Shown in pieces: positions 1 to 64,000 of a DNA stretch of 64,000 bases. Each line of letters opens with the position of its first letter. Positions within the stretch are counted from its first letter, which is position 1. The DNA comes from Spirochaetota bacterium (lineage in GTDB: Bacteria; Spirochaetota; UBA12135; COTS27): the NCBI GenBank assembly GCA_965249715.1, contig CBDFMP010000048.1:69713-133712 (forward strand), given 5' to 3'. Both the position numbers and the translations under genes were made by a program. Below the pieces are notes generated by a model. That model did not search any database, was not told where the DNA came from, and worked only from the letters and a program-made list of their open reading frames with translations.

Positions 1-65
1 TGTAAAGAAAATGGCTGCCTTGGAAGGTGGCTTCTTTGATTTGGGCGCGGATGGCACTTCTATTA
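1..65 (-). repeat. Second copy of a 65-bp piece of the fbpC-like gene 3' region (matches 378-442); the window starts inside it
   Basis: By-eye alignment of 1-65 with 378-442 shows 64/65 identical. The reverse strand reads ..SAIRAQIKEATFQGSHFLY versus ..SAIRAKIKEATFQGSHFLY in the gene. Confidence 0.85.
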
Positions 66-255
66 AAGAGCGTATCGTCCATGGTCACAGCCATAAGGCT
101 CTTACGAAAGACCCCAATATGCAGGGAACGGCTAAATATATAGCTTTGGAGACATTGAGCAGGTCGCGGCGATAGTAAGTGACCGCGCTGACAATGCCTA
201 TGCCTAGGACAATCAACGTAAAAGTGCTGGTAAAAGAAAAATCCATCGTTATGAT

Positions 256-1413
256 TCAGGATGCAAATGCAACAATGTGTTGAAAGGAAAAAACAATGCC
301 CACTTCTTCATTGAGGTTATAACGATAAGTTGCGGGCATGAGCGAAAGCAGTTTTGTGCCTGAATGTAGCTCTAAGCTGTAAAGAAAATGGCTGCCTTGG
401 AAGGTGGCTTCTTTGATTTTGGCGCGGATGGCACTTCTATTATCCAGCCGTACGTCGTCGGGACGGACAAGGACTTTGACATTAAGCGACTGACGGCGGT
501 AGGGGTTTACTAGCGGAGCAGGTGCTGTGTCTGGCGGAGTCACAAGTTGAAATTTCTTGATGCGACCAAATTCACTGTTTAACGTACCTTCTTCAATGAT
601 GCCGTTCACCAGGACTCCCTTGCCAATAAAATCTGCAATGAAACGTGACCGCGGCTGGTAATAAATTTCATAAGGTGTGCCCACCTGTTCCAAGCCGTGT
701 GCGTGAATAACGCCGATCTTATCCGAGAGTGCAAAAGCTTCATTTTGGTCATGAGTGACAAGGAGGGCGGTCAGTTTTTCCTCTTTGATCAGCGCGCGCA
801 GGGTCACTTGCAATTTCTGCTTGAGCTCAATGTCTTGACTGGCTAGCGGTTCGTCCAGCAATAAAAGTGCAGGCTGCGGTGCCAGTGCGCGTGCGAGTGC
901 TGTACGCTGCTGCTCACCGCCGGAGATGGTATGCGGGTATTGGTTCACAACGTGTTCCAGTTTGAGGGCGGTGATGAGGGCATCCATGCGGCGATGCTGG
1001 TCTTTGCGTGACCCGTGTTTCATGGAAAGCAGGATATTGGCTTTGACGCTGAGGTGCGGGAAGAGTGCCAGATCCTGAAAGACCATATTGATATTGCGAT
1101 CGGCGGGCGGCACCAGCATTTGCGGACTGCTGATGACTTTGCCATTTAAATAAAGTTTGCCTGCAACGGGGGTTTCAAAACCGGCGATTGCTTTGAGCAA
1201 TGTTGTTTTTCCGCAACCGGAGGGCCCCAGCAGGCAGAAAATTTCTTCACGTTTGACACGCAACTCAATATTCGTAAGTACAGGCAGCTTGCCGTGAGCA
1301 AGCGACATGCCTGCAATATGTAAAAATGGTTTATCCTCCCGTGCCGCTGGGTGTGTAAGAATATGTTGCTGCGGCAGCTGGTTCGTGATAGGAGGAGGGA
1401 AGTCTTTTGTCAT
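256..1413 (-). CDS. fbpC: ABC importer ATP-binding protein, Fe(3+)-type (FbpC/PotA-like) with a C-terminal TOBE-like domain
   Basis: 385-aa ORF with Walker A GPSGCGKTT, ABC signature LSGGEQQRTALARAL and Walker B LLLLDEP. It lies downstream of the permease and Fe(3+)-type binding-protein genes. Confidence 0.85.
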   Translation of the reverse strand: MTKDFPPPITNQLPQQHILTHPAAREDKPFLHIAGMSLAHGKLPVLTNIELRVKREEIFCLLGPSGCGKTTLLKAIAGFETPVAGKLYLNGKVISSPQMLVPPADRNINMVFQDLALFPHLSVKANILLSMKHGSRKDQHRRMDALITALKLEHVVNQYPHTISGGEQQRTALARALAPQPALLLLDEPLASQDIELKQKLQVTLRALIKEEKLTALLVTHDQNEAFALSDKIGVIHAHGLEQVGTPYEIYYQPRSRFIADFIGKGVLVNGIIEEGTLNSEFGRIKKFQLVTPPDTAPAPLVNPYRRQSLNVKVLVRPDDVRLDNRSAIRAKIKEATFQGSHFLYSLELHSGTKLLSLMPATYRYNLNEEVGIVFSFQHIVAFAS

Positions 1414-1436
1414 GGTTGTGAAGGTTTGTGTCCTAC

Positions 1437-18533: not shown

Positions 18534-18655
18534 TTTCTTTGTAAAGATATGTCTTGATGCTCTTACAGGGGTTCTACTCCACTTCTGTGTGAAAAACAAG
18601 ATAAAACTAAAAATTACAATTAATATTAAAATTAAATTAGCGAGAGGTACTTCTC

Positions 18656-20072
18656 ATGAAAAGACTCCTACTCATTTCTTCCGTGCTTGTGGCAGGGTTG
18701 ACTTCATACGTGTTTGCTGCCGGCTATACTGCTGGTGTTAGCATTGATGCACGTGTTGGTGGTTACATAGTTGGTGGCGGCACTGCTTTTGAAACGTTTA
18801 CTGTAGAAACGACTACAGATTCTACAGGCGCAGTGGTTTACCAACAAGTTCCCGGTACTGGTCAGGCAATTGGCGATAACGCGCAGGAATATGACACCAC
18901 TAAAATTACATTTGATGCCAGCATTGACAATGTTTCTGCATCCGTCACATTTGCGGCTAACAGCGTAGATGGGGGGGCAACTAACTTCATCACACTTGAT
19001 TCTTTCAATGTAAAAGCCAGTGATCTATTTGGTATGTTGACACTTCAGTTTTATGACTGGGGTTATTCTGCAGGCAGCTCAGCCAATGAAGGCGATTACA
19101 TTCTATCAGACATTGGGTTTCCATGGTTTTTATGCCACTGTTAAGCCTATTGATATTCTCAGTATTGGTCTCGGTTTTGGTGTGAATACAGATAGCATTC
19201 GCGGTGTGCGGCTTGATTTCGGTATTGGCGGTCCCGTTCCTACGGATATTTATCTTGGTGTTGTTATTAATAGCATTGATAACGAAGATGATGCTGGTCA
19301 TGTTAAAGAAGGTACCATTGAGCGTCTGCAGGCAGGTTTCCAATCTAAGCTTTACGGCGATTATGTGAAACTAAGCTTCGGTATTACTCCACTTGGTACT
19401 GCTGTCAGTTACCTTGAGACTACCGCTACGGGTACAATAATTGTAAATACAGATGATGATGGCGTTGAGACATATACGAATGAAATACGCAGCTGCCGCT
19501 GATACAACTACGGAAATTAACTTTGTAGTTGATATTTCAGGCAGCGCTTCTTTCCTAGGCGGGCTTTTCAGCTTGGGTTATGGCGTGCAGTACGCAGCGC
19601 CTACTCTTACTAAAGCACTAGCTGCAGGTGGCGGCGGTCTTACTGGAGATGGTGTCGCAGTCGCTTATCCCACTGACTTCGGTTATCAGGCTATTTATAA
19701 CGGTGGTACTGACCTCTTGGAAGACATTGCTGTGAAACATTAATCCTGCTGTTACTGTTGGGCAATTCACTGTTTCACTGCCTATTAAGTTTGAGCTTTA
19801 CGGCACTACTTATGGCGGTTATCAGTTGCGTCAGGATCCAGTGTATATCATTGACATTGACGCCGACCATTAAGTGGTCGCCTGCTTCTGGCATTAGCGT
19901 CGTAGCGCTTATTGGTATTGACCTGATCAATACTTCTATAGGCGATCTCAATACTGATATTGGTGTTGGCTTTGTTGATCAAGGTCATACCAGCGGTGAA
20001 ACTGGTTTTGGTATTGATGATATTTTCGGACAGCTTCAAGTAGCTGCTTCATTCGGAGTATCTTCTGAGTAA
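18656..20072 (+). pseudogene. Secreted or surface protein gene of unknown family (~470 codons) interrupted by four successive +1 frameshifts
   Basis: Signal peptide MKRLLLISSVLVAGLTSYVFA. The reading frame moves from frame 2 (18656) to frame 0 (~19110), frame 1 (~19485), frame 2 (~19745) and frame 0 (~19865). The last two shifts are 1-nt length differences relative to the in-frame partial copy at 20192-20618. Confidence 0.7.
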
Positions 20073-20140
20073 GTTTTGTTATTTAGTTTTAGCGGGTTAG
20101 GCGATTAACAAAAAATCGTCCTGAGCTCGGTTAAAGCCTA

Positions 20141-20185
20141 AAGCCCACGCAGGATGCCAGTTGGTATTCTGCGTGGGCTTTTTTT
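20141..20185 (+). terminator. Rho-independent terminator, copy 1 of 4
   Basis: Stem gcccacgcag (20143-20152) / ctgcgtgggc (20169-20178), followed by T7 (20179-20185). Confidence 0.85.
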
Positions 20186-20191
20186 GTCGAT

Positions 20192-20618
20192 TGGAGAGGG
20201 TATCGCAGTTGCTTATCCCGATAACTTCGGTTATCAGGCTATTTATAACGGTGGTACTGACCTCTTGGAAGACATTGCTGTGAAAATTGTTCCCGCTGTT
20301 ACTGTTGGGCAATTCACTGTTTCACTGCCTATTAAGTTTGAGCTTTACGGCACTACTTATGGCGGTTATCAGTTGCGTCAGGATCCAGTGTATATCATTG
20401 ACGTTGAGCCGACTATTAAGTGGTCGCCTGCTGCTGGCATTACCGTCAAAGCGCTTATTGGTATTGACCTGATCAATACTTCTGTAGGCGATTTCAATAC
20501 TGATATTGGTATTGGCTTTGTTGATCAAGGTCATACCAGCGGTGAAACTGGTTTTGGTATTGATGATATTTTTGGACAGCTTCAAGTAGCTGCTTCATTC
20601 GGAATATCTTCTGAGTAA
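20192..20618 (+). pseudogene. Promoterless, frame-intact copy of the last ~140 codons of the 18656-20072 gene (3' cassette)
   Basis: Homology to 19644-20072 begins immediately after terminator copy 1. There are no frameshifts and many substitutions, and the stop is at 20616-20618. Confidence 0.8.
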
Positions 20619-20685
20619 GTTTTGTTATTTAGTTTTAGCGGGTTAGGCGATTAACAAAAAATCGTCTGAGCTCGGTTAAAGCCTA

Positions 20686-20730
20686 AAGCCCACGCAGGAT
20701 GCCAGTTGGTATTCTGCGTGGGCTTTTTTT
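20686..20730 (+). terminator. Rho-independent terminator, copy 2 of 4
   Basis: Same stem at 20688-20697 / 20714-20723, followed by T7 (20724-20730). Confidence 0.85.
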
Positions 20731-20906
20731 GTCGATGTTAGTGTAGGGGGCTATTTATAACGTGGTACTGACCTCTTGGGTCTGTGTGCCGATTGCTGTT
20801 ATGAGGTTTCGTTGGCGGCGCGCGGGGGGGCGTTGCATTGCGATGGGAGGACGTAGGCTTTCCGTGAGTGTCTTATTGTTTATCGTAGTGATGTTAGAAT
20901 TAGTAT

Positions 20907-21910
20907 ATGGGAAAGTGGAGTAAGCTGGTGCAGATTTTGGCATTCGGAATATTTTAAAGAGAATTACTGCTCGTGGCTTTGGTCAATAGTTATTATTTTA
21001 AGTATAGTTGGATGTGCATATTGGTTAGGCTTATGCTTTAATGAGAGTAAAGCTAATTAGTGTATTTAATTGCTACTATAATGATAGGAATATTTACGCC
21101 TGCTTTTACTATTTCTGAATACAGGAACATATAAATCAGAATTTCAGTTAAAAGAAGTTCATAGTGAGGATACTCGGTCTTAAGGACCGCTCATGCTGAT
21201 ATATCGGTCAGTTAAGAAAGGATCATGGTGAGGATAGTCGGTCAGTTAAAAGAAATTTATGACAGTAAGCTTAAGGCACAAAAAATAGCAATTTGATAAC
21301 AATAAAATTGTTTTTTTGGGTTCACGTATCTTATGGAAATTGCAGAAAAGTTAATTGAAGAAGTAACCAAGAGACAAGGAATATGAAAATTTGGATCTGA
21401 TGAAAGGATTTGTGTTTATAGGTATTTTTCCAAAGAAAGGGGGTTTAGGTGTATTGGACGTTATTCAAAAGTAGATCCAGAATTAAATAAATTTGTCGAG
21501 AATAAATTATTATCAGTGAAGGATTTATATCTAACGTATTTAAGAAAACCGATTGGGTAGAAGCAATAGCTTCCAAGTATTCCACATGATAATAGGATGC
21601 AGTATAGAGCGTTGGAAACGATACAGGGCGGATAGATCATATAAAAGAGGAGGATCAAGGCTTTTCCTTAAGAGGTATCAGAGCATATATTAAAGAGGAG
21701 CATGGACTTACGCCTGATGTTTATGAAAAATTTCGCATGAATGCTGAGCATATGATTGCTAAAAAATTACAGGATAAAACAGCTATAGGCGTTATTGTGT
21801 TTGAAAGCTGCCGCAAGGATTTTCTTTCATTGGAATGTATAAAAAAAGCTTGCACTAAGAATGATGAGCAGTTTATAATTAGGATGATATGTGATCATTT
21901 TCATGAATAA
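20907..21910 (+). pseudogene. Decayed copy of the 2-TM cassette gene (paralogue of 22745-23611)
   Basis: Upstream region and first ~23 nt are identical to those of 22745. A stop follows after 16 codons. Internal fragments are recognisable (CVYRYFSKERGFRCIGRYSK.., ~21410-21540) with in-frame stops. The C-terminal ~80 codons (21660-21910) are still alignable, including FRMNAEHMIAK. Confidence 0.75.
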
Positions 21911-21930
21911 GCATAATTAATGGATGAGGG

Positions 21931-22476
21931 ATGATGACAACAGCGACAATTGCAGAGAGCCAAACGATTCTTATGGACGTTATGGCTTATATTTGTAAAA
22001 GATATAGTAGCCCGGAAGAACTTTCCAAAGCAAGGCTGACGAAGCTAATTTATTTGGCGGATTGGAGGTCTGCTAAGACTAAGAGTGATAACAGTCAAAT
22101 CACGAATATTAAATGGTATTTTAATCATTACGGGCCTTATGTGGATGATGTGGTGGATGTGATCATTGATCACGAGGACACTTTTAAGCTTGACCCCGGT
22201 ACTAATATTTATGGTGGTGTCCGTGATCTTGTGAGGTTAAAAAAAGCGGATTACGAGTATGGGCAGCTGCAACGAGAGGAAGACAAAAAGCTCTTGGATG
22301 AAATTATTACTAGGAGTGCAGGGTTGAATTGGACTAGATTTATAGACTTAGTTTATTCATCTTACCCTATTACAGTTTCCGAACGCTATGCTCAGCTTGA
22401 TTTGCCAGCTTTAGCAAGAGAGTACAAAGAGCGCGAAAGCAAGCCGCATTTCGAGCTTATTGCTGATGACATTTAG
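21931..22476 (+). CDS. Panacea/DUF4065 (SocA/GepA-like) antitoxin-domain protein, copy 1
   Basis: 181 aa. Strings RLTKLIYLADW..WYFNHYGPYVDDV fit the DUF4065 pattern (KLxKLLY..W..GPV). About 65% identical by eye to 23671-24213. Confidence 0.7.
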   Translation: MMTTATIAESQTILMDVMAYICKRYSSPEELSKARLTKLIYLADWRSAKTKSDNSQITNIKWYFNHYGPYVDDVVDVIIDHEDTFKLDPGTNIYGGVRDLVRLKKADYEYGQLQREEDKKLLDEIITRSAGLNWTRFIDLVYSSYPITVSERYAQLDLPALAREYKERESKPHFELIADDI

Positions 22477-46798: not shown

Positions 46799-47704
46799 TT
46801 ACCAATAAATGGCAATGCCCACATTCAGTTTTTGCGTAAACGTCAGTTTGTTTTTGGGCACAGGTTCCACAAAATACTCCAATGCTACAGCGTACTGGGT
46901 GTGCAAGGCCATGGTGGGGGTAAAAAACCACTCGTACGTGACGGCAGCTGTGGTGCGCACCGTATTACCCCAATGATAAAGTGCGGTCGTTTCTAACAAA
47001 GTATTGATCAGCACATCCACAAGTCCATTGCTATTTTCTAATACTTGTTCTAAATGGAAATTGTAAACGTTAAAACGCGGGCGTGCCACAGCACCGATAA
47101 CGGGAAGATAATAATGGATGCGCAAATGATGTTTTTTTAAAGCAAAATTCACCATCAGTGCCGGGCCAATGGTCATGGTGGCACTCCAGCCATAACTGAG
47201 AAAATTCTGAATCAACCAAAAGTCTAGATTGCCTTCAACCATAAACCCAAGGTAAAGTGTTGCTACTTTTGTTCGCAATACGCTAAATGCTGAACTATAG
47301 GCTAGATTGACGAGGATATCCAAGTCAGCGCCTGATTGGGTAACGGGCCCATTGTCACCTGTGGCGTAGTTGACTAAGAGCGCTCCCGCGCCTGCTGTCA
47401 TTTGCACATAATGATAATGCTGCGGAGCAATATGCTCATACCCCAGGTGGAGATTGCCGCCAAGTCCCAGACGATAAAGCGAAGAAACGACGAGATCACG
47501 ACCATCGTTTAAAAATATTCCACCAGCAATGGTAAAAACATTACGCCGCGCCTCAGTCTCAGTGTCCGTGTCCAATGCCGGTTCAGCTGCGGGTGCCTCA
47601 GCTGGCGGTGCTGTTATTTCCTGTGCTAATAGCTTGGCTGGTTCATGTAACCAGCTGCTGACTAAGTAGCTGCCAGCGATGAGCAAGATGTAAAGTATTC
47701 TCAT
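46799..47704 (-). CDS. Putative outer-membrane beta-barrel protein (paralogue family, member 1)
   Basis: 301 aa. Signal peptide MRILYILLIAGSYLVSS, amphipathic strand pattern and aromatic C-terminus ..VGIAIYW. Shares blocks with 49414-50211 (KHHLRIHYYLPVIG/KHTLELNWYVPLVG; WGNTVRTT/WGNSFRTT). Confidence 0.6.
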   Translation of the reverse strand: MRILYILLIAGSYLVSSWLHEPAKLLAQEITAPPAEAPAAEPALDTDTETEARRNVFTIAGGIFLNDGRDLVVSSLYRLGLGGNLHLGYEHIAPQHYHYVQMTAGAGALLVNYATGDNGPVTQSGADLDILVNLAYSSAFSVLRTKVATLYLGFMVEGNLDFWLIQNFLSYGWSATMTIGPALMVNFALKKHHLRIHYYLPVIGAVARPRFNVYNFHLEQVLENSNGLVDVLINTLLETTALYHWGNTVRTTAAVTYEWFFTPTMALHTQYAVALEYFVEPVPKNKLTFTQKLNVGIAIYW

Positions 47705-47724
47705 CCCTTTAATTTCTCATCCCT

Positions 47725-48179
47725 TTAATAAATGGCAATACCAAGACCGACCTGATGGACATAGTCTGTTTGTGTATTGGCGGTTAATTTCGGATAATAA
47801 GCTACTTTCAAGATAATTCGCGTATTCTGAATCATATTTTGGACGGCTCAGTACCTTCGCTTTCGTTTGCCGAAAGTGGTAACAGTAATAGGACGCTGCT
47901 GATAATAATAAGAGCTGTTGTGAGTCTTAGGTTTTTGCTAAGTGACATGATTTTATCATCCATAAGCTTAAAAGATTAATGATAATAACTATTTTAACGG
48001 CATGGTCTATAATTATAAATTAAAGTAGCAAATTTGTTGCTTTATAATAGAGCTGTACAGGTTTTTTAGACTTTATTTAATATATTGCCGTTGAATACAT
48101 TCAGTTCGGGAGGTAATTTGAGTTTTGCCGGCGGTGATGCCTGCAGTCCTTGTAGCCAAGCTGCCAGCAGCGGCACTTT
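47725..48179 (-). pseudogene. Internally deleted duplicate of the OMP-2 gene plus its upstream spacer and the neuB 3' end
   Basis: 47725-47948 aligns with the 3' and 5' ends of 49414-50211 (start cat at 47946-47948; stop after ~38 codons). 47950-48145 aligns with 50212-50405. 48146-48179 aligns with an internal neuB piece (~50944-50985). Confidence 0.75.
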
Positions 48180-49413
48180 GACAATGCCGCGGAGCAATAT
48201 GCTCATGCCCTAAGCGGAGCTTGCCATCAAGTCCTAGACGATAAAACAAAGAAACGACGAGCTCACGACTATCGTTTAAAAACATTCCACCAGCAATGGT
48301 AATGGTAAAAACATTGCGCTGCGCCCTCAGTGTCCGTGTCCAAGGCAGGCTCAGCTGTGGGTGCCCTCAGCAAGCGGTGCTGTTATTTCCTGTGTTAATA
48401 GCTTAGCTTGGCTGGTTCATGTAACCAGCCGCCAGCAGCGGCACTTTGACAATGCCGCGGAGCAATGTGCTCATGCCCTAAGCGGAGCTTGCCATCTAGT
48501 CCTAGACAATAAAACAAAGAAACGACGAGCTCACGACCATCATTTAAAAACATTCCACCAGCAATGGTAATGGTAAAAACATTGCGCTGCGCCCTCAGTG
48601 TCCGTGTCCAAGGCAGGCTCAGCTGTGGGTGCCCTCAGCAAAGCGGTGCTGTTATTTCCTGTGCTAATAGCTTGGCTGGTTTCATGTAACCAGCAGCTAC
48701 CAGCGCACTTTGACAATGCCGCGGAGCAATGTGCTCATGCCCTAAGCGGAGCTTGCCATCTAGTCCTAGACGATAAAACAAAGAAACGACGAGCTCACGA
48801 ATAAAAGGCAATGGTAATGGTAAAAAAGCCCTCAGTGTCCGTGTCCAAGGCAGGCTCAGCTGTGGGTGCCATCAGCAAGCGGTGCTGTTATTTCCGAGCT
48901 TGGCTGGTTTCATGTAAGCAGCTGCCAGCGATTTAAAATACACCCCTCTAATAAAAGGCAAGCCGCCAGTAGCGGCACTTTGACAATGCCGCGGAGCAAT
49001 GTGCTCATACCCTAAGCGGAGCTTGCCACCTAGTCCTAGACGATAAAACAAAGAAACGACGAGCTCACGACCATCATTCCACCAGCAATGGTAATGGTAA
49101 AAACATTGCGCTGCGCCCTCAGTGTCCGTGTCCAAGGCAGGCTCAGCTGTGGGTGCCCTCAGCAAGCGGTGCTGTTATTTCCTGTGCTAATAGCTTGGCT
49201 GGTTTCATGTAAGCAGCTGCCAGCGATGAGCAAGATGTAAAATATTCTCATCCCTCTAATAAAAGGCAAGCCGCCAGCAGCGGCAGCAAGCGGTGCTGTT
49301 ATTTCCTGTGTTAATAGCTTGGCTGGTTCATGTAAGCTTGGCTGGTTCATGTAAGCAGCTGCCAGCGATGAGCAAGATGTAAAATATTCTCACCCCTTTA
49401 ATTTCTCATCCCT
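48163..49413 (-). repeat. About 5 degenerate tandem copies (~240-290 bp) of the 5' end (first ~90 codons) of OMP-1, some including its start region and the OMP-2 stop junction
   Basis: Recurring blocks gccagcagcggcactttgacaatgccgcggagcaat..ctcagtgtccgtgtccaaggcaggctcagctgtggg..ggctggttcatgtaa are homologous to 47415-47704. Units start near 48163, 48431, 48695 and 48962, and at least one further unit begins in the rearranged stretch after ~49230. Confidence 0.8.
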
Positions 49414-50211
49414 CTAATAAAAGGCAATGCCAAGACCGACCTGATGGACATAGTCTGTTTGTGTATTGGCGGTTAATTCCGGATAATAATCTAATGAGAC
49501 GCCATAATGGCAAACAAAGCCTATAGACGGAAGTACTCCAATGCGGTAGGTTAAATTTATGGTAGTGCGAAAACTATTTCCCCATGAGCGCAGCCCCAGC
49601 TCCACTGGTTCTGTCTCGGCGTTCAGTGAACTGATGCCTACGAGCGGTACATACCAATTGAGCTCCAATGTATGTTTTCCGATAATGAATTCACCGATGA
49701 TGGCTGCGCCTAAGGTAGTTGTGGAAAAGGTATCGTAGCGATAAAGAATAGCGTCGCTCAGCAAAGTTGTATTATTTTCAATCGTAAAACCTAGATATAG
49801 ATTGAGAACTTTCAGTGGGAGGAGATTATAGCTTAGGTTGAAGGTGCCATTGATCAAACCGCGCAATGTTTCGTCGGGAGCATTGGGGGTGAACTCATGC
49901 CAAAATATTTCCACCCGCCCAAAGCCACGGACGCGATTTTTGATAAAATCCAATTGCACCCGTCCGCCGTAAACATAATAGTATGTGATCTCGGGCACTT
50001 CTATTTCTTCAAGATAATTCGCGTACTCTGAACTGTATCCAGGCACATCTACATTGTAAAACATGACGCTGGGAAGGATTGTGAAGATAAATTTTGTTTT
50101 TTTGGACGGCTCAGTACCTTCGCTTTCGTGTGCTGTTAGTGGTAGTAGCAATAGAGCGCTGCTGACAATAACAAGAGCTGTTATTATTCTTAGGTTTTTG
50201 ATAAGTGACAT
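49414..50211 (-). CDS. Putative outer-membrane beta-barrel protein (paralogue family, member 2)
   Basis: 265 aa. Signal peptide ..ALVIVSSALLLLPLTAHE and C-terminus ..VGLGIAFY. Paralogous to 46799-47704. Confidence 0.6.
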   Translation of the reverse strand: MSLIKNLRIITALVIVSSALLLLPLTAHESEGTEPSKKTKFIFTILPSVMFYNVDVPGYSSEYANYLEEIEVPEITYYYVYGGRVQLDFIKNRVRGFGRVEIFWHEFTPNAPDETLRGLINGTFNLSYNLLPLKVLNLYLGFTIENNTTLLSDAILYRYDTFSTTTLGAAIIGEFIIGKHTLELNWYVPLVGISSLNAETEPVELGLRSWGNSFRTTINLTYRIGVLPSIGFVCHYGVSLDYYPELTANTQTDYVHQVGLGIAFY

Positions 50212-50328
50212 AACTTTTTCCTCGCTAAGCTTAAAATATTGATAATAATAGTTGTCTCAACTGTATTACCTATATTATAAATTAAAATAGTAAATTTATT
50301 GCTTTTATAATAGAGCTGTACAGTTTTT

Positions 50329-51666
50329 TCAGACTTTATTTAATGGTTTGCCGTTAAAGGCATTCAGTTCGGGAGGTACATTGAGTTTTGCGGCGGTGAT
50401 GCCTGCCCCGCTGGTTATGCTCTTTGCACTCATGAGTTGTTCTCTGCCCTTGCCAGTGGAGTGGCGCAGCACCTCTTCCCAGTCCGGTGGCAGACCTGCT
50501 TCATTGCCCTGCTCGGCGCGCAAATAGGCGCTATTGGCGTGGCTAAGCGGCGTTCCCGCGGCAATAGGCGCAGTGGCAATGAGGGAACGTTTGCTGGTAT
50601 GATAATAAGGTTTTTCGCATGCTGCCAGGGTTTTCACACCATCACCCAGTGTGGCACTCAGCTCTTCGCTGCTGTAAAACGCACTTAGTGTTTTACCAAG
50701 CAGGCTGAGCAGCTGTGTTTTGAGCGCGCGCGGATTGATCAATTTTTCGCTCAGTGCCTGTGTACAGGCACGCATGACGGGAGCTGCGGCGTTTTTGTTG
50801 GCTCCCCGTACTGTAATAAGCTCTTGCATGGTTTGGCTGAGCGCCGTGCTCAGCTCGGCAAATTCCTGCGGGATGAGCGCAACACTGTCATCGAGGCCAG
50901 CTCCGCTGCGGCTAAGCGTGAGGTGTTTTTCAAGGATAAGCGGCCTGCCTGCAAGGCCTTGCAGCCAAGCTGCCAGCAGCGGCACTTTCAAGGGATGTGG
51001 AGTGTGATCGGAGAGACCTGTGAGCATTCCTGTTGTGCGTGCAAGTGTGAGCAATGTGAGCAGGTTGTAATCGCTGGGGCGGCTGGGATAACAGGTCACA
51101 CACTGCATGAGGGCAATGCTGGCACTGAGCTTGTCAAGCGACTGCTGCTTTTGCACCGCATTTGTTTTAAGAAAACGCATGAATGCTTGGATATCGGCTG
51201 AGCGGCTCATGCCGATGGAACAGAAAACAGGAAGCTGCGTTTTTAGTACTGCACGCCAGAGGTCGTAATAGGTTAGCTCGGGGGATGCTATTTTATGCGC
51301 GGCAACGCCTAGCTCAGTGAGCAGCTGCAAACTGCGGCTGCCAAAGCAGGAAGCGAAAAACAGGATATTAGAGGCGGCTGCACTTTGTTTGAGTGCCATA
51401 AAGAATTCCCGCTCACGTTCCAATGTTTTAAACTTTTGGTACAGCTGGACGCGTTTGCCCCCCAGTCTGAGTGTACCGCTTTCAGGATGAAGAATTTCAT
51501 CAGCGAAGACAACTTGAAATTTGACGGCGTTTGCACCGGCACTTGCCGCTGCATGGATAAGTTCCTTGGCATGCTGCAGGCTGCCTGCATGTGCGGTGCC
51601 GGCCTCAGCAATGAGGAAAACATTATGCCGACTGTGCCGGGCAAGAAATGTCTGCATGACGCCCAT
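50329..51666 (-). CDS. NeuB-family sialic-acid-type (N-acetylneuraminate/pseudaminate-like) synthase, long form
   Basis: 445 aa. FLIAEAGTAHAGSLQHAKELIHAAASAGANAVKFQ and ..AHKIASPELT.. are typical of NeuB. The C-terminal region is SAF-like. No neuA/neuC lies nearby. Confidence 0.7.
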   Translation of the reverse strand: MGVMQTFLARHSRHNVFLIAEAGTAHAGSLQHAKELIHAAASAGANAVKFQVVFADEILHPESGTLRLGGKRVQLYQKFKTLEREREFFMALKQSAAASNILFFASCFGSRSLQLLTELGVAAHKIASPELTYYDLWRAVLKTQLPVFCSIGMSRSADIQAFMRFLKTNAVQKQQSLDKLSASIALMQCVTCYPSRPSDYNLLTLLTLARTTGMLTGLSDHTPHPLKVPLLAAWLQGLAGRPLILEKHLTLSRSGAGLDDSVALIPQEFAELSTALSQTMQELITVRGANKNAAAPVMRACTQALSEKLINPRALKTQLLSLLGKTLSAFYSSEELSATLGDGVKTLAACEKPYYHTSKRSLIATAPIAAGTPLSHANSAYLRAEQGNEAGLPPDWEEVLRHSTGKGREQLMSAKSITSGAGITAAKLNVPPELNAFNGKPLNKV

Positions 51667-52115: not shown

Positions 52116-52120
52116 GGTGC

Positions 52121-57253: not shown

Positions 57254-58138
57254 ATGGACATATTGTCAGCTCCCGCACTTTCCTTAACACCTCTTAATTC
57301 TTATCAGGTCAAGCTTCCCACATGGAGCGGTCCTATGGAATTATTACTGGACCTCATTCGTTCAGCGCAACTGGAAATTACCGAACTCTCGCTTACACAA
57401 ATAACGGAAGATTACCTAAATCGCCTTACTGAGCTTAAACGGCTGGACATTGCCGTGAGTGTGGATTTTTTAGTTATGGGGGCGACGTTGGCGCTTTATA
57501 AAACGCGCGCGCTTCTGGGAGAGCCGGCTGAAGTGGAAGCAGCCGATGCCTACAAGGAAGCATTGGTCCAGCAACTGCTTAAATATGAGCAATACAAACA
57601 GGCGGCTATGCGTTTGGAACAGTTTTTGGAGCAGACGCCCGCTGTTACATTGGAAAAGGTGTCCTTAACAGCGCGTTTGCCGGCGACTGCTAAAGCTTAT
57701 CCTGTGGAACAACATGGGCAGTGGCAGCCTGCATCTTTGGCGGACTTGGCTGCGGCATTTTATCGCATCATGGATCGGCAGACACAAACGCTTGCCAAAG
57801 ATTCTTTTAGCAAATTTGCAGAAAAGGTTGAGGAGAAACGTTTATGGATAGTCAGCGAGCTTAAAGGCGCGCGCGGGATGAAAGGAGTGCCATTTTCGTA
57901 TTTTGTCAAAGCTGCAAGCGGCAACGCACCACTGCCCAGTGAAGTGCTGGCTGTGTTTGTCGCGCTTTTAGAACTTTACAAGCTGGCACAGCTGGAAGCT
58001 TATCAAGCTGAAGCTTTCGCAGAGATTATGCTCTTTAATAATGCCGCGCGTGCGCGCTCAACACCCGCTGAAACCAAGTCGACTGCTGCCACTGAAGTCA
58101 AACACGTCGACACAGCAGACGAACAAGCAGATCACTAA
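57254..58138 (+). CDS. scpA: Segregation and condensation protein A (kleisin)
   Basis: 294 aa. N-terminal GPMELLLDLIRSAQLEITELSLTQITEDYL is typical of ScpA. Its last ~56 codons form unit 0 of the downstream repeat array. Confidence 0.85.
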   Translation: MDILSAPALSLTPLNSYQVKLPTWSGPMELLLDLIRSAQLEITELSLTQITEDYLNRLTELKRLDIAVSVDFLVMGATLALYKTRALLGEPAEVEAADAYKEALVQQLLKYEQYKQAAMRLEQFLEQTPAVTLEKVSLTARLPATAKAYPVEQHGQWQPASLADLAAAFYRIMDRQTQTLAKDSFSKFAEKVEEKRLWIVSELKGARGMKGVPFSYFVKAASGNAPLPSEVLAVFVALLELYKLAQLEAYQAEAFAEIMLFNNAARARSTPAETKSTAATEVKHVDTADEQADH

Positions 58139-60347
58139 ACATAACTTTGTTGTGTTTTTAGAACATTACAAGCTGGCACAGCTGGAAGCTTATCAAGCTG
58201 AAGCTTTTGCAGAGATTATGCTCTTTAATAATGCTGCGCGTGCGCGCCCAACACCCGCTGAAATCGGGGCGGCGGCTGCCATTGAAATCAAGCACGCCGA
58301 CACAGCAGACGAACAAGCAGATAACTAAACATAACTTTGTTGCGTTTTTAGAACATTACAAGCTGGCACAGCTGGAAGTTTATCAAGCTGAAGTTTTCGC
58401 CGGGATTATGCTCTTTAACAATGCCGCGCGTGCGCGCTCAACACCCGCTGAAATCGTGTCGGCTGCTGCCATTGAAATCAAGTGCGCTGAGACAGCAGAC
58501 GAACAAGCAGATCACTAAACATAACTTTGTTGTGTTTTTAGAACATTACAAGCTGGCACAGCTGGAAGTTTATCAAGCTGAAGCTTTCGCAGAGATTATG
58601 CTCTTTAACAATGCCGCGCATGCGCGCCCAACACCCGCTGAAATCGTGTCGGCTGCTGCCATTGAAATCAAGCGCGCCGAGACAGCAGACGAACAAGCAG
58701 ATAACTAAACATAACTTTGTTGCGTTTTTAGAACATTACAAGCTGGCACAGCTGGAAGCTTATCAAGCTGAAGTTTTCGCCGGGATTATGCTCTTTAACA
58801 ATGCCGCGCGTGCGCGCTCAACACCCGCTGAAACCGTGTCGGTTGCTGCCATTGAAATCAAGTGCGCTGAGACAGCAGACGGACAACGATAACTAACGTA
58901 ATTTTGTTGCGTTTTTAGAACATTACAAGCTGGCACAGCTGGAAGCTTATCAAGCTGAAGTTTTCGCCGGGATTATGCTCTTTAACAATGCTGCGGGTGC
59001 AACACCCACTGAAACCGTTTTTAGAACATTACAAGCTGGCACAGCTGGAAGCTTATCAAGCTGAAGTTTTCGCCGGGATTATGCTCTTTAACAATGCCGC
59101 GCGTGCGCGCCCAACACCCGCTGAAACCGTGTCGGCTGCTGCCATTGAAATCAAGTGCGCGAGACAGCAGACGAACAAGCAGATAACTAAGCATAACTTT
59201 GTTGCGTTTTTGGAACTTTACTAGCTGGCACAGCTGGAAGCTTATCAAGCTGAAGTTTTCGCCGGGATTATGCTCTTTAACAATGCCGCGCGTGCGCGCC
59301 CAACACCCGCTGAAACCGTGTCGGCTGCTGCCATTGAAATCAAGTGCGTCGAGACAGTAGACGAACAAGCAGATAACTAAGCGTAACTTTGTTGCGTTTT
59401 TAGAACATTACAAGCTGGCACAGCTGGAAGATCACTAACATAACTTTGTTGTGTTTTTAGAACATTACAAGCTAGCTCAAGCTGAAGTTTTCGCAGAGAT
59501 TATGCTCTTTAACAATGCCGCGCGTGCGCGCCCAACGTTGAAACCTGCGCTGAACGTCGACACAGTAGACGAACAAGCAGATAGCGGTAACTTTGTTGCG
59601 TTTTTGAACATTACAAGCTGGCACAGCTGGAAGTTTATCAGATTGAAGCTTTCGCAGAGATTATGCTCTTTAACAATGCCGCGATGCGCGCCCAACACCC
59701 GCTGAAATCGTGTCGGCTGCTGCCATTGAAATCAAGTGCGCTGAGACACAGACGAACAAGCCGATAACTAAGCGTAATTTTGTTGCGTTTTTAGAACATT
59801 ACAAGCTGGCACAGCTGAAAGTTTATCAGATTGAAGTTTTCGCAGAGATTATGCTCTTTAACAATGCCGCGCGTGCGCGCTCAACACCCGCTGAAACCGT
59901 GTCGGTTGCTGCCATTGAAATCAAGTGCGCTGAGACAGCAGACGAACAAGCAGATAACTAAACATAACTTTGTTGCGTTTTTAGAACATTACAAGCTGGC
60001 ACAGCTGGAAGTTTATCAAGCTGAAGTTTTCGCCGGGATTATGCTCTTTAACAATGCCGCGCGTGCGCGCTCAACACCCACTGAAACCGTGTCGGCTGCT
60101 GCCATTGAAATCAAGTGCGCTGAGACAGCAGACGAACAAGCAGATAACTAAACATAACTTTGTTGCGTTTTTGGAACTTTACTAGCTGGCACAGCTGGAA
60201 GCTTATCAAGCTGAAGTTTTCGCCGGGATTATGCTCTTTAACAATGCCGCGCGTGCGCGCTCAACACCCGCTGAAACCGTGTCGGCTGCGCCATTGAAAT
60301 CAAGCGCGCCGAGACAGCAGACGAACAAGCCGATAACTAAGCGTAAC
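58139..60347. repeat. Tandem array (~190-bp period; ~11 full and 3 truncated units) copying the overlapping 3' ends of scpA (+) and hemJ (-)
   Basis: The unit landmark gaac(a/t)ttacaagctggcacagctgg occurs at 57971, 58161, 58351, 58541, 58731, 58918, 59024, 59213, 59403, 59460, 59606, 59794, 59984 and 60174. Each unit carries the scpA stop, and its reverse strand carries the hemJ C-terminal ..LSY.LVRLLSRRA codons. Confidence 0.92.
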
Positions 60348-61379
60348 CACGCCAATAACAATAAGCGTCGCAATGAGCGCCGGTAGCGGTTGTTTGAAAA
60401 TGGCTAAGAATACGATGCCGGTAAAGAGCATGGGTGCCACTTTATTGAAGCGCCGCAGCCGACGGCTGATACTTGTTGGCTGGGGGTGGTGTGGCTCCAG
60501 CATGACGCCCGCGATACAAATATGGTAGACCGCCAGTATTATGATCAACATCATTTTCCAGTATATCCAAGACTGGACAAACGCATTGCTTTTATAAGTT
60601 AATGCAATAAGCAGCCCGGAGATAATGGTGAGTATAAACGCAGAAATGGCAACACCGAATATATTGAGTTCCATGGAACTGTACTGTTTTTGTAGGGCTG
60701 CGCGCACTTCAGGGGTTAATGGCTCAGCTCCAGCAGTAGTGCTAAGCGCTTTCTGATGGTACACAGGCAGTTGTCCCCCACAAAAAATTGCCGCCATCCA
60801 GCTTACCATTGTAATAATATGAGCGACTAACATAAAATGGTAAGAAAAATTCTCCTCCCAGAAAAGAACTATAAGCTCATTTTTAAACGTCACAATGAGT
60901 GCCGATGGTGATTGTTTGTAAATTGCTAATAATATAATGCCCATAAAGAGCATGATGCCCATCAGTTTAATGAATAAGTGCAGACGGCGACTGCTCATTA
61001 CCGGCTGGGAGCGGCGCAGTTTCAGCATGATGCCCACGGCATACATATGGTAGCCCACCAGTGCTATGACCAACATCATTTTCCAGTGTATCCAAGACTG
61101 TGCAAAGGCATTGCTTCTGAGTGCAAGCTCAATCCCGAAAGCAATGGTGAGCATAAGCGCAGGCGTGGCAATAACGCTGAGGAGTCTGCGTTCCATGAAA
61201 CTGTACTGTTTTTGTAGGGCTGCGCGCACTTCAGGGGTTAATGGCTTAGCTCCATCAGCAGTGCTAAGCGCTTTCCGATGGTATGTAAGCAGTTGTCCCG
61301 CCAAAAAAAGTGCCGCCATCCAGCTTACCATTGCAATAATATGAATGCCTAAACTAAAATGATGAGAATATAGTTCCAT
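60300..61379 (-). CDS. hemJ: In-frame head-to-tail fusion of two HemJ (protoporphyrinogen IX oxidase, UPF0093) modules
   Basis: 359 aa. Both halves start with ..(E)LYS(H/Y)HF..HII(A/T)MVSWMAA and repeat the whole ~175-aa HemJ architecture. Function of the fusion is uncertain. Confidence 0.65.
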   Translation of the reverse strand: MELYSHHFSLGIHIIAMVSWMAALFLAGQLLTYHRKALSTADGAKPLTPEVRAALQKQYSFMERRLLSVIATPALMLTIAFGIELALRSNAFAQSWIHWKMMLVIALVGYHMYAVGIMLKLRRSQPVMSSRRLHLFIKLMGIMLFMGIILLAIYKQSPSALIVTFKNELIVLFWEENFSYHFMLVAHIITMVSWMAAIFCGGQLPVYHQKALSTTAGAEPLTPEVRAALQKQYSSMELNIFGVAISAFILTIISGLLIALTYKSNAFVQSWIYWKMMLIIILAVYHICIAGVMLEPHHPQPTSISRRLRRFNKVAPMLFTGIVFLAIFKQPLPALIATLIVIGVVTLSYRLVRLLSRRA

Positions 61380-61448: not shown

Positions 61449-61637
61449 TTAAAGCCGATTGAGCTCATTGAGACTATTGAGCGCAGCAATTCCATAAGCC
61501 TCAGCCATTGACGAATAAATAAACGTATTATTCAGGAAGTAGCGTAAGTTGTTAGCCGCGCCGCGCTGGTTCATGATGGCTTGACCTAGATGGATGAGCT
61601 CCGAAGTTTGTCGCCCCAAGCAGTGCGCGCCTAAAAT
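61449..61637 (-). pseudogene. Stray copy of the last ~62 codons of sthA
   Basis: ..[51 protein letters not shown] aligns with the true sthA C-terminus. The upstream end is fused to a fragment of the scpA/hemJ repeat (61640-61700). Confidence 0.85.
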
Positions 61638-61681
61638 TTCCCAACACCCGCTGAAACTAAGTTGGCTGCTGCCACTTGAAG

Positions 61682-62236
61682 TCAAGCGCGCCGAGACAGC
61701 AGACGGATAAACAGATAACTAAGCGTAACCACGCCAATAACAATAAGCGTCGCAATGAGCGCTGGTAGCGGTTGTTTGAAAATGGCTAAGAATACGATGC
61801 CGGTAAAGAGCATGGGTGCCACTTCATTGAAGAGCCGTAGCTGACGACTGCTCATTGTTGGCTGGGAGCGGCGTAGTTTCAGCATGATGCCCACGGCACA
61901 CATATGGTAGCCCACCAGTGCTATGACCAACATCATTTTCCAGTGTATCCAAGACTGTGCAAAGGCATTGCTTCTGAGTGCAAGATCAAGTCCGAAGACA
62001 ATGGTGAGCACAAGTGCAGGACTGGCAATAATGCTGAGGAGTCTGCGTTCCATGGAACTGTACTGTTTTTGTAGGGCTGCGCGCACTTCAGGGGTTAATG
62101 GCTCAGCTCCATCAGCAGTGTTAAGCGCTTCCTGATGGTACACAAACAGTCGTCCCACATAAAAAAGTGCCGCCATCCAGCTTACCACTGCAATAATATG
62201 AATGCCGAAACTAAAATGATAAGAATATAGTTCCAT
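61682..62236 (-). CDS. hemJ: Protoporphyrinogen IX oxidase HemJ (UPF0093 family)
   Basis: 184 aa with [22 protein letters not shown] and four TM segments. Confidence 0.8.
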
Positions 62237-62305
62237 TACAAATGTACTCCCTACCGCGTGGTCTTGAATTTCATAAGAGTTAATGTTTGAATATGTGAAA
62301 AATAT

Positions 62306-63856
62306 TTAAAGCCGATTGAGACCGTTGAGTGCAGCAATTCTATAAGCCTCAGCCATTGACGGATAATTAAACGTATTATTCAGGAAGTAGCGCAAGTTGT
62401 TAGCCTCGCCGCGCTGGCTCATGATGGCTTGACCTATATGGATGATCTCCGAAGCTTGCCGACCAAAGCAGTGAGTGCCTAAGATTTCCAGCGTCTTACG
62501 ATGGAAGAGCATCTTCAGCATGCCAATGTTATCGCCAAGGATCTGCGCTTTCGCAAGATTTTTAAAATTGGCAATGCCCACTTCATAAGGGATTTTTGCT
62601 TCCGTCAATTCGCGTTCGGTCTTGCCTATGCAGCTGATCTCGGGTGTGGTGTAAATACCGGTGGGAATATACAATGGCGAGAAATAAAAGCCTTTTAAGC
62701 TAAGTTTTGTCGCCACCAGGCAACGGCCTTGATCATAAGCGACACCCGCTAAACTTGGCCAGCCAATGACGTCACCGGCGGCAAAAATATTTGCTATCTT
62801 CGTCTGATAATCTTCGTTGACAGGCACAACGCCGCGTTTGTTGACAGTAATGCCAACGCGATCCAGTTTGAGACTGTTAATATTGGCGACGCGTCCTTGT
62901 GTCCAGAGCAGATAGGGCGCCTTAATGCACTTTCCCGATGTTAATATTAATTCTATATGATCATCGTATGTTTTCACAGCAGCATAATGTTCGCAGTTGC
63001 GGATGACAATACCCTGATCGCTCATATGGTAGTTAATGGCATTGCTAATCTCAGCGTCCAGGAAATCCAGCACGGTACTGCGGCTGTTGATCAGATCCAC
63101 TTTAGTGCCGAGGTTTTTTAAAATGCTTGCATACTCGCAGCCCACCACACCAGCGCCATAAATGGCAACGCCCACGGGGGTTTCAGTGAGGCCTAAGATT
63201 TTATCGCTGTCTAAGATGCGCGGGTGATTAAAATCAATGGTTTTGGGATGCATGGGACGTGAACCGGAGGCAATGACAATGTTTTCTGCCGTCACGCGTT
63301 CCTTACTGCCATTGGTATCAGTGAGAATGAGCGTGTGTTCATCATAAAAGGAAGCTTCAGCAAACCGCAGGGCAACCTTATTGCGTTTGTAAAAATTGTG
63401 GCGCATGCGCACTTGTGCATCAATGACCGTACGCGCCATGTTCAGAAAGTCTTTGAACGAAGGTGTGGGGGCACTGTATTCTTTGCCCAGATAAGGGATT
63501 TTGGAAAGATTCAAGTAGGCGATAATGCTTTGGCGCACGGATTTTGAGGGAATCGTCCCCCAATGTGTGCAGCCGCCGCCTATTTCTTTGAACCGCTCAA
63601 TGGCAAGAACACGTTTATTGGCTTTGCTTGCCATCATGGAAGCGCCTTCACCGGCAGGCCCTGTTCCAATGACAATAAAATCGTAATGGTAATGATGTTT
63701 CTTAGAGCTTTTACGCGCCGCTTGTTTGGGTTTGGTGTTTGGCTTGCTTGTGGCTGCGTTGTCTGATGCAGAGGGGGCGTCTGAAGCCTTAGCGGTTGCA
63801 GGTGGTTCTGACTTTGTGGTGTGAACTTGTGTGGAGTAAGGAGAGTATTGTCCCAT
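62306..63856 (-). CDS. sthA: Soluble pyridine nucleotide transhydrogenase with a ~50-aa basic low-complexity N-terminal extension
   Basis: YDFIVIGTGPAGEGASM..IGGGCTHWGTIPSK is diagnostic of SthA. At 516 aa it exceeds the ~466 typical. Confidence 0.88.
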   Translation of the reverse strand: MGQYSPYSTQVHTTKSEPPATAKASDAPSASDNAATSKPNTKPKQAARKSSKKHHYHYDFIVIGTGPAGEGASMMASKANKRVLAIERFKEIGGGCTHWGTIPSKSVRQSIIAYLNLSKIPYLGKEYSAPTPSFKDFLNMARTVIDAQVRMRHNFYKRNKVALRFAEASFYDEHTLILTDTNGSKERVTAENIVIASGSRPMHPKTIDFNHPRILDSDKILGLTETPVGVAIYGAGVVGCEYASILKNLGTKVDLINSRSTVLDFLDAEISNAINYHMSDQGIVIRNCEHYAAVKTYDDHIELILTSGKCIKAPYLLWTQGRVANINSLKLDRVGITVNKRGVVPVNEDYQTKIANIFAAGDVIGWPSLAGVAYDQGRCLVATKLSLKGFYFSPLYIPTGIYTTPEISCIGKTERELTEAKIPYEVGIANFKNLAKAQILGDNIGMLKMLFHRKTLEILGTHCFGRQASEIIHIGQAIMSQRGEANNLRYFLNNTFNYPSMAEAYRIAALNGLNRL

Positions 63857-64000
63857 GATGGCCTGCTGAGTGTTATAAATGAAGATTTTTTAGAGTTTTT
63901 ATGGGCTTTGGTGGGGGGGTTAGCCTTTATTTTTAAATTTTATTAGTTTTTAAAATATCGGAGTGACGGGGGATAAATTGAATACGAACGGCGGCTTCTG

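Follow-up and report, generated by a model that had tools for sequence, protein, structure and literature searches.

The window, by which we mean the whole 64-kb stretch of DNA analyzed here from a single assembly, carries tandem or nested copies of gene ends at all six loci named in the original prediction. At its left edge, self-comparison identified a 3' repeat of an fbpC-like gene (1..442, minus strand) with a 377-nt unit comprising the last 62 codons of an ABC ATPase gene (256-1413) and 190 nt downstream: positions 378-442 recur at 1-65 (98.5% identity over 65 nt, offset 377), where the second copy (65->1) is truncated by the window start.

Arrays at gene ends

A secreted-protein gene (18641..20072, plus strand), homologous to a 531-aa COTS27 protein, is a probable pseudogene split over four reading frames. 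Its 3' end is repeated in array A (19644..20779, plus strand), which consists of two 548-nt units (19644-20191 and 20192-20736, 96% alike) and a 32-nt stub of a third (20749-20779). Each unit combines the last ~430 nt of the gene with a terminator that has a 19-bp stem. Two additional +1 frameshifts are present in the copy attached to the gene, and the array ends ~10 nt beyond the strong terminator. Two diverged ~1855-nt cassettes follow (20660..24370, plus strand; GC 38-39%), each with a SocA/Panacea antitoxin-like gene (21931-22476; 23671-24213) and both closed by the same terminator (22541-22582; 24272-24311), while a 288-aa partner ORF (22745-23611) is retained by the second only. The kdsB gene (24471..25271, minus strand) is convergent with this block, and these co-directional, toxin-antitoxin-like cassettes separate it from array A by 3.6 kb.

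Array B (34315..36630, minus strand) lies between tsaE (36168..36980, minus strand; 270 aa, intact; PF02367, E = 3.5e-17) and a convergent gene with a CBM48/AMPK1_CBM domain match (33474..34301, plus strand). Its five 462-nt units each contain the terminal ~153 tsaE codons and a further 5 nt, with unit B1 forming the true 3' end of the gene. Units B1-B3 are 97.8-98.5% alike and indel-free; indels occur at 3 positions in B4 and at 5 in B5, which is ~95% alike, such that their number rises with distance from the gene. The CBM48 stop codon is 13 nt from the last unit, and the two stops were formerly ~18 nt apart; array B is without a strong terminator. A homologue search did not find a COTS27 TsaE orthologue.

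The neuB-omp265-omp301 locus is co-directional (minus strand). Here omp301 (46799..47704) is an intact outer-membrane-like gene with a signal peptide and a C-terminal aromatic residue, and omp265 (49414-50211) and neuB (50329-51666) are also intact; between omp301 and omp265, the span 47705-49493 contains four to five 5' fragments of the outer-membrane-like gene. Array C (48151..49413, minus strand) has four ~268-nt units from omp301 codons ~16-97, which are 73-84% identical to omp301 and out of frame with it, with +1, -5 and +6 indels in common; a fifth fragment (49284-49413) adjoins omp265. Self-comparison also identified a second-copy remnant of neuB 3' end, intergenic region and omp265 (47705..48144, minus strand), in which 47837-48144 matches 50100-50406 (84%), 47705-47804 matches the omp265 3' end and intergenic region (90%), and the interior of this omp265 copy has been deleted. 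The parents of this large duplication are omp265 and neuB (49414..51666). Neither omp301 nor omp265 matched any Pfam family at E <= 0.01, Surface_Ag_2 (PF01617) included, which leaves their earlier "OMP-1" label unverified in a gene context syntenic with the Spirochaetota symbiont COTS27.

The intact scpA gene (57254..58138, plus strand), whose last ~50 nt are antisense to the hemJ 3' coding sequence, leads into array D (57956..60347). Its 14 units, ~190 nt long apart from three truncated ones (106, 61 and 143 nt), combine the last ~60 codons of scpA (plus strand) with the last ~14 codons of hemJ (minus strand). scpA takes its 3' end from the first unit and hemJ-a from the last, so the overlapping 3' ends of these genes are now 2.2 kb apart; this array, too, is without a strong terminator. 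Edge units are 86-92% identical and interior units 93-98%, the best partners are non-adjacent (U03-U13, 97.9%), and there is a higher-order period of 380 nt, features that, along with the truncated units, are signs of unequal crossing-over. The graded decay proposed originally describes the tsaE array but not the scpA array, where edge units diverge most.

Adjacent to array D, an sthA 3' fragment and three hemJ copies span 60262-62489. The hemJ-b/hemJ-a gene (60300..61379, minus strand; 359 aa) is an in-frame fusion of two copies (offset 522 nt, or 174 codons; 77% alike) and represents the one gene-internal duplication, in frame and backed up by the intact hemJ-c (61682-62236, minus strand), which of the hemJ copies is nearest to COTS27 HemJ (55%). 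By self-comparison, the sthA fragment (last ~60-78 codons; 61449..61685, minus strand) belongs to a duplicated unit of ~860 nt containing the sthA 3' end, the intergenic region, hemJ and 40 nt more. The parent sthA (62306-63856, minus strand) is intact and co-directional with hemJ, and pairwise dN/dS among hemJ copies is near-neutral (0.65-1.3).

Repeat content of the window and of COTS27

By self-BLAST, 12,812 of the 64,000 bases (20%) are self-similar; about one-fifth of the window consists of tandem gene-end copies that look like harmless junk. Tandem Repeats Finder (TRF) coverage was 9.7% overall and 9.0% for periods of at least 100 nt, compared with 0.52% and 0.017% in 80 control loci (1.37 Mb) from diverse bacteria, a long-period density far exceeding that of ordinary bacterial DNA. 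The point differences between copies noted originally are borne out: divergence is 2-27% across loci, mostly through transitions (Ts:Tv at variable sites of 22:11, 34:11 and 14:6, or 2-3:1), and arrays include truncated units, nested duplications, internal deletions and higher-order blocks. The corresponding range of identities, 73% to 98.5%, suggests that the duplication process has been long-running.

In self-comparison, similarity between loci was limited to the adjacent scpA and hemJ regions, in agreement with the proposal that the arrays are independent. The arrays carry no mobile-element genes, as had been claimed: Pfam scans of 33 ORFs found no transposase or integrase, and the only inverted repeats in the window are terminator hairpins. 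Rfam and tRNA scans of the window returned zero matches. The hairpin shared by array A and the cassettes was the sole strong site in a terminator scan, and terminator-like sites were overall as numerous as in shuffled sequence, with no excess. Microhomology at the junctions of arrays A, B and D was 0-1 nt by eye, at junctions too diverged to interpret. Short repeats within intact genes had a period that was a multiple of 3 in 17 of 21 cases versus 8 of 15 in intergenic DNA, which is a trend only (P = 0.14). The window also carries frameshifted genes, which we read as pseudogenes that point to relaxed selection, though they could instead be assembly errors.

The nearest relative found is COTS27, a subcuticular Spirochaetota symbiont from crown-of-thorns starfish (AP019861.1; PMC7444263), with identities of 46% for ScpA, 54% for KdsB, 77% for SdhA, 83% for MgsA and 73% for SthA. 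Gene order is conserved in both neuB-sdhCAB-mgsA-scpA-hemJ-sthA and carAB-purF-kdsB. Judging from this synteny, the source of the window is an uncultured bacterium related to COTS27, and the Anaplasmataceae setting implied by the original prediction is wrong. Searches of JGI metagenomes with ScpA or an alignment of the clade-specific orf92 found no relatives, and exact look-ups of the SthA, ScpA and KdsB proteins of the window located them on no other contig. SdhA proved too conserved as a marker, with 80 unrelated phyla matching at ~70% identity and COTS27 not among the matches listed.

In the outgroup COTS27, this gene order includes a single hemJ, with 205 bp between scpA and hemJ. The COTS27 genome is itself rich in tandem repeats: short ones make up 8.2% of one locus (L081), its assembly has 23 gaps caused by tandem repeats, and, as in the window, transposable elements are absent (PMC7444263). 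These repeats are found between genes of all orientations, no less in divergent and co-directional spacers than in convergent ones, and carB has an internal in-frame 45-nt repeat. COTS27 also contains one 70-nt fragment copied from the kdsB 3' end; it lies between two Glug genes, themselves duplicates, where a convergent junction has been duplicated. However, repeats in the two COTS27 loci examined are 10-177 nt and either intergenic or in-frame within genes, with no long gene-end arrays, and its GC is 39.6% versus about 47% for the window genome. The two genomes are not strictly equivalent, since COTS27 repeats are mostly short-period and not gene-derived, but the tendency toward tandem repeats is lineage-wide rather than genome-specific as first supposed.

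Selection and mutation as possible sources of the gene-end bias

All primary units cross a gene end, and the flanking genes tsaE, scpA, hemJ-c, sthA, omp265, omp301, neuB and fbpC are intact. With random placement on a de-duplicated map, the probability that all six primary units would avoid the interior of a single gene is 0.019. The gene-terminus preference proposed originally is significant (P about 0.02), but its association with convergent junctions is not secure: among five junctions, considered post hoc, counting three arrays gives P = 0.033 for enrichment, and counting two gives P = 0.18. Gene-internal endpoints fall in 3' versus 5' regions at 7:1 (manual count; binomial P about 0.035). 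Three arrays had been placed exactly between convergent genes, which is accurate for CBM48/tsaE and scpA/hemJ but not for the secreted-protein gene and kdsB, given the intervening cassettes.

We consider it reasonably probable (roughly 0.65) that these patterns reflect a symbiont lineage under relaxed selection in which illegitimate tandem duplication is frequent and unequal crossing-over then expands the copies, with array positions set by survivorship. Segments of 0.2-1.9 kb would be duplicated at a high rate, initially by illegitimate events (replication slippage or template switching) that involve microhomology barely or not at all, and the resulting arrays would be enlarged and reshuffled by homologous unequal crossing-over or slippage among copies. 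In a host-restricted population, junk DNA would be only weakly selected against, and arrays may then persist and decay. The preference for gene termini would be due to survivorship: if both endpoints of a duplication fell within one gene, that gene would be destroyed and the duplication purged, whereas one crossing a gene end would leave an intact copy of each flanking gene and add only promoterless fragments. The most permissive sites would be the 3' ends of transcription units, convergent junctions included, since an insertion there neither parts a gene from its promoter nor splits a set of co-transcribed genes. Because single-gene-internal duplications disrupt genes while gene-end duplications spare their neighbors, purifying selection alone could yield the observed pattern, and there is no need to invoke the proposed mechanism that targets convergent 3' ends or gene termini.

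Alternatively, as proposed originally, the 3' ends of transcription units may be mutational hotspots, at which stalled forks or converging RNA polymerases lead to template switching that duplicates gene termini. The two arrays exactly between convergent genes, with stops that were ~18 nt apart (CBM48|tsaE) or overlapping (scpA|hemJ), are consistent with this idea, as are the end of array A just after a strong terminator, the presence of three arrays at five convergent junctions and the 7:1 bias toward 3' regions. However, the enrichment loses significance when only the two exact cases are counted, the pattern was chosen after the fact, and no array is present at menA|TPR gene or orf92|mgsA, which make up two of the five convergent junctions. 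Neither array B nor array D has a strong terminator, terminator-like sites are no commoner than in shuffled sequence, the neuB-omp265-omp301 and sthA-hemJ loci are co-directional, and COTS27 repeats show no preference for convergent spacers. Selection alone predicts an identical bias; conversely, given the 3' bias and the two to three arrays at five convergent junctions, a mutational hotspot where transcription units end would look no different from selection. We regard a hotspot as unlikely, and it is similarly doubtful that abutting or overlapping convergent 3' ends in particular are true hotspots at which polymerase or transcription-replication collisions trigger template switching. If they were, the genome would be a natural record of conflict-driven duplication.

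A function for the arrays is very improbable. Four to five promoterless partial copies directly upstream of a predicted surface-protein gene could suggest that the omp301 5' fragments are silent donors for antigenic variation, and the 2.2-kb separation introduced by array D could suggest selected spacers that part converging transcription. However, the omp301 cassettes are out of frame and share indels, and we rejected the antigenic-variation reading on the basis of this frame disruption. Furthermore, similar arrays occur at the cytoplasmic housekeeping genes tsaE, scpA, fbpC and sthA, copies decay by indels with near-neutral dN/dS, and no conserved sequence is common to the arrays. Least credible is an assembly artefact in which arrays were made or inflated from a single- or low-copy repeat: although short-read assembly could misstate the copy number of tsaE units that are 97-98% alike, and several frameshifted genes call assembly quality into question, stutter would yield identical copies, as opposed to the divergent, transition-rich, truncated, nested, internally deleted and higher-order copies seen here, and reading frames stay open where the flanking genes run precisely into the arrays.

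Relation to known repeat systems

The REP/BIME elements of enterobacteria are ~35-nt palindromes that form one dispersed family. Like them, the repeats in the window gather where transcription units end on the 3' side and where genes converge, positions that selection tolerates, but their units are 190-1855 nt, derived from adjacent genes and unique to each locus; a REP/BIME-like family was rejected on these grounds. Silent cassettes for antigenic variation include Borrelia vls, the Treponema pallidum tprK donor sites and the Anaplasma msp2/p44 pseudogenes. The omp301 locus alone resembles these systems, with promoterless partial surface-gene copies beside a full-length copy, yet its cassettes are frameshifted and decaying, and the identical architecture at cytoplasmic housekeeping genes indicates that the process is not antigen-specific.

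The closest match is Ehrlichia ruminantium, in which truncated gene fragments are created and intergenic DNA is enlarged with no involvement of mobile elements, in a genome with a GC of about 29%. Both are host-restricted bacteria with many long-period tandem repeats at gene borders and in non-coding DNA, and in the window, too, these repeats create truncated fragments while parent genes stay intact, intergenic DNA is enlarged and mobile elements are lacking. They differ in that E. ruminantium belongs to the Rickettsiales, while the window derives from a Spirochaetota-like marine-invertebrate symbiont with a GC of about 47%, and in that between-strain copy-number variation is the hallmark of E. 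ruminantium, whereas the window repeats are known from a single assembly. The analogy drawn in the original prediction is apt: PMC10710844 describes long tandem repeats in E. ruminantium non-coding DNA that expand and contract (Collins et al. 2005 and Frutos et al. 2006, as cited in PMC10710844 and PMC7343930). The window is another case of the tandem-repeat genome already known from that species.

Gene-fragment ORFs of this kind are likely to be mis-annotated as genes, and one array ORF is already in a public protein set as P0026. Short-read assemblies will collapse or gap such loci, while the arrays could serve as copy-number (VNTR-type) markers of strains. After E. ruminantium, this is a second, phylogenetically independent host-restricted genome whose inflation is due to tandem duplication and not to mobile elements, and it is a mid-GC genome from a barely studied lineage of marine-invertebrate symbionts. 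Selection alone can produce a striking preference for gene ends, a null model that should precede any targeting mechanism.

Positional bias of the tandem copies

Repeat density in the window is far above that of ordinary bacterial DNA: TRF assigned 9.7% of it to tandem repeats versus 0.52% of control sequence from diverse bacteria (80 loci, 1.37 Mb), and 9.0% versus 0.017% for periods of at least 100 nt. TRF delimited arrays at 34315-36624 (period 462, 5 copies, 97% matches), 48151-49224 (period 268, 4.1 copies) and 57956-60347 (period 190 or 380, ~12.5 copies), and self-BLAST added two 548-nt copies (19644-20736), a diverged pair of ~1.85-kb cassettes (20660-24370), nested hemJ/sthA duplications (60262-62489), a neuB/omp265 fragment (47837-48144) and matching 65-nt stretches at 1-65 and 378-442, with 12,812 of 64,000 bases self-similar by the latter method. 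Together, the two methods confirm that tandem copies of gene ends exist. Tandem repeats of short period (8-32 nt) cluster in intergenic spacers (7847-7882, 11384-11432, 18367-18407, 21144-21249, 45465-45509, 47698-47729 and 49316-49418); of those within genes, the few that score high have 6- and 21-nt periods and are hence in frame.

The anticipated bias of the copies toward gene termini was borne out. On a de-duplicated map (56.4 kb, 45 genes, 88% coding), random placement gave P = 0.019 for none of the six primary units lying wholly within one gene, indicating that the bias is real. Enrichment at convergent junctions, five of which occur among the 45 genes (four without orf92, a 92-aa small ORF), is suggestive. 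The arrays of tsaE (array B) and scpA/hemJ (array D) sit exactly at such junctions, as originally described, but for the array of the secreted-protein gene (array A) this holds only on the assumption that the SocA cassettes between it and kdsB were inserted later. Under non-disruptive placement, P was 0.033 for at least three of six units at convergent junctions and 0.18 for at least two of six; since the pattern was also noticed post hoc, the enrichment is not established.

Gene-internal endpoints fell in 3' rather than 5' regions by 7 to 1 (our count), consistent with tolerance of duplications at transcription-unit ends, where no promoter-bearing 5' fragments arise and no operon is interrupted. 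Alternatively, transcription-unit ends may be duplication hotspots, which would leave the same 3' excess. This is unlikely, since tandem repeats at the loci examined in the sister genome COTS27, a starfish symbiont (AP019861.1), show no orientation preference.

We favor, with a probability of roughly 65%, a combination of frequent illegitimate tandem duplication, weak selection against extra DNA and a purifying filter on position. Illegitimate tandem duplications would arise frequently and be expanded and reshuffled by unequal crossing-over or slippage, while selection against extra DNA would be weak in a host-restricted symbiont, with which the putative pseudogenes of the window fit. Purifying selection would then purge disruptive duplications and so set where arrays persist: if both ends of a duplication fell within a single gene, that gene would be disrupted, whereas a duplication across a gene end would spare an intact copy of each neighbor. 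The original prediction invoked a process acting on gene ends; its arrays and terminus bias are real, but its convergent component lacks that standing and purifying selection alone would predict the bias.

Structure and decay of the arrays

The intact tsaE gene (36168-36980, minus strand; PF02367; 270 aa) is followed by five repeats of a 462-nt unit comprising its last ~153 codons and 5 nt, and 13 nt separate the end of array B from the stop of a convergent CBM48-domain gene. Units B1-B3 are 97.8-98.5% identical with zero indels, B4 has three indel positions, and B5 has five and is ~95% identical, so that decay rises with distance from tsaE. An array-derived 161-aa ORF is listed as a gene in the public protein set (P0026). 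TsaE itself has a long tail at its C terminus and a ~50-aa insertion separating the two stretches that match Pfam; a word-indexed search retrieved no COTS27 orthologue.

Array D consists of fourteen ~190-nt units (U01-U14), three of them truncated (106, 61 and 143 nt), each carrying the final ~60 scpA codons (plus strand) and the final ~14 hemJ codons (minus strand); scpA is completed by the first unit and hemJ-a, one of three hemJ copies, by the last. Because the scpA stop lies within antisense hemJ coding sequence (tail-to-tail overlap, 57254-58138/60300-60350), the two genes originally overlapped by ~50 nt. The ScpA C-terminal tail is ~14 aa longer than in COTS27. Edge units U01, U02 and U14 share 86-92% identity with the others versus 93-98% among interior units, best partners are non-adjacent (U03-U13, 97.9%), and the pair 7-8 is 97% identical to the pair 13-14, so that a higher-order period of 380 nt results. 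Such features are marks of unequal crossing-over. In the adjacent hemJ/sthA region (region E), a ~860-nt unit that runs from the sthA 3' end through the intergenic region and hemJ to 40 nt downstream is duplicated (60884-61641 versus 61744-62489, 88%), and two hemJ copies have been joined in frame by a duplication of 522 nt (174 codons), giving a 359-aa ORF. The three hemJ copies show pairwise dN/dS values of 0.65-1.3, and hemJ-c is nearest to COTS27 HemJ (55%); the COTS27 counterpart has one hemJ and a 205-bp scpA-hemJ spacer.

The secreted-protein gene (18641-20072), whose COTS27 homologue is a 531-aa protein, lies broken up among four reading frames and is either a pseudogene or a product of assembly indels. 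The insertions seen lie outside long homopolymers, and the distal duplicate (20193-20612) is one uninterrupted frame. The 548-nt unit of array A comprises the last ~430 nt of the secreted-protein gene and a 19-bp-stem terminator, and is present in two copies and a 32-nt stub of a third. Next come the two diverged ~1.85-kb cassettes of the SocA island (20660-24370; GC 38-39% versus ~47% for the window), then convergent kdsB. Each cassette carries a SocA/Panacea antitoxin-like gene (PF13274; 21931-22476 and 23671-24213) and terminates in the same 19-bp-stem terminator as the secreted-gene unit, and the second cassette alone keeps a 288-aa partner ORF (22745-23611), which has no Pfam or PADLOC match. 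The island is absent at the COTS27 kdsB locus and is probably an acquired toxin-antitoxin module that was duplicated later. At the window edge, the last 62 codons of an fbpC-like gene and 190 nt downstream begin to repeat. An S41 peptidase lipoprotein gene (45543-46770), seemingly split into overlapping ORFs of 134 and 318 aa, and a DUF423 gene (51706-52208), whose match to the COTS27 homologue is limited to residues 41-117 of the latter, may be further pseudogenes.

Region C originally had the order neuB-omp265-omp301, with the three genes on the minus strand. Three events followed: duplication of a large unit extending from the 3' end of neuB to roughly omp301 codon 97, loss of the interior of the second omp265 copy, and amplification of a 268-nt piece (omp301 codons ~16-97) four times. 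Common indels of +1, -5 and +6 put these cassettes out of frame with omp301. A function of the arrays, for example as antigenic-variation cassettes or transcriptional spacers, is very improbable. Neither outer-membrane-like gene, omp301 or omp265, matches a Pfam family, leaving the earlier 'OMP-1' label unsupported.

Artefact and mobile elements

The arrays are neither artefact nor mobile. Transitions outnumber transversions at variable sites (22:11 in array B, 34:11 in array D, 14:6 in array A), copies at the various loci are 73% to 98.5% identical, and the repeats contain nested events, truncated units and internal deletions, so that assembly stutter, already doubted in the original prediction, is scarcely credible. 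As also foreseen, Pfam scans of 33 ORFs found no transposase or integrase; the families seen were housekeeping and SocA-like, with the remaining ORFs unmatched. Inverted repeats in the window are terminator hairpins only, and self-BLAST found no sequence common to different arrays save the adjacent D and E regions.

Kinship with COTS27 and known systems

For ScpA, the closest non-self homologue is COTS27_01062 from 'Spirochaetota bacterium' COTS27 (46% identity); for KdsB, it likewise comes from COTS27 (54%). Two COTS27 loci are collinear with the window (neuB-DUF423-sdhB-sdhA-sdhC-orf92-mgsA-scpA-hemJ-sthA and carA-carB-purF-kdsB), with 39% to 83% identity across the collinear genes; membership in Anaplasmataceae was rejected on these grounds. 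COTS27 is a subcuticular symbiont living in crown-of-thorns starfish with a 2.68-Mb genome, 39.6% GC and 1650 genes (PMC7444263). Plus-strand GC skew is positive almost throughout the window (cumulative +2.7), though the minus strand holds most genes, and peaks at 0.26-0.30 over 20-26 kb. The orf92 product (55908-56186; ~60% identity to COTS27, invariant IGRYENCRHRY motif) has no relatives in JGI metagenomes and is apparently a small protein specific to the clade.

At the first COTS27 locus, almost all intergenic spacers, among them co-directional sdhB|sdhA, divergent mgsA|scpA and convergent scpA|hemJ, hold short tandem repeats (10-77 nt). At the second (L082), carB has an internal, in-frame 45-nt x 3.8 repeat (6086-6257), two Glug genes are tandemly duplicated, and between them lies a 70-nt duplicate of the 3' end of kdsB (93%; 10710-10779 and 14458-14526), a relic of a gene end at a convergent junction, of the same kind as in the window. 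These repeats and the kdsB relic indicate that the propensity for tandem duplication is lineage-wide, and the proposal of a genome-specific process does not stand.

The closest known phenomenon is tandem-repeat plasticity in Ehrlichia ruminantium, whose genome is ~64% coding and whose tandem repeats in non-coding regions expand and contract (PMC10710844; PMC7343930). Of its four listed defining features, the three that a single assembly can show were found in the window; the fourth is a copy number that differs from strain to strain. The repeats described here are therefore of a known kind, Ehrlichia-type repeat plasticity, in a lineage that is new.
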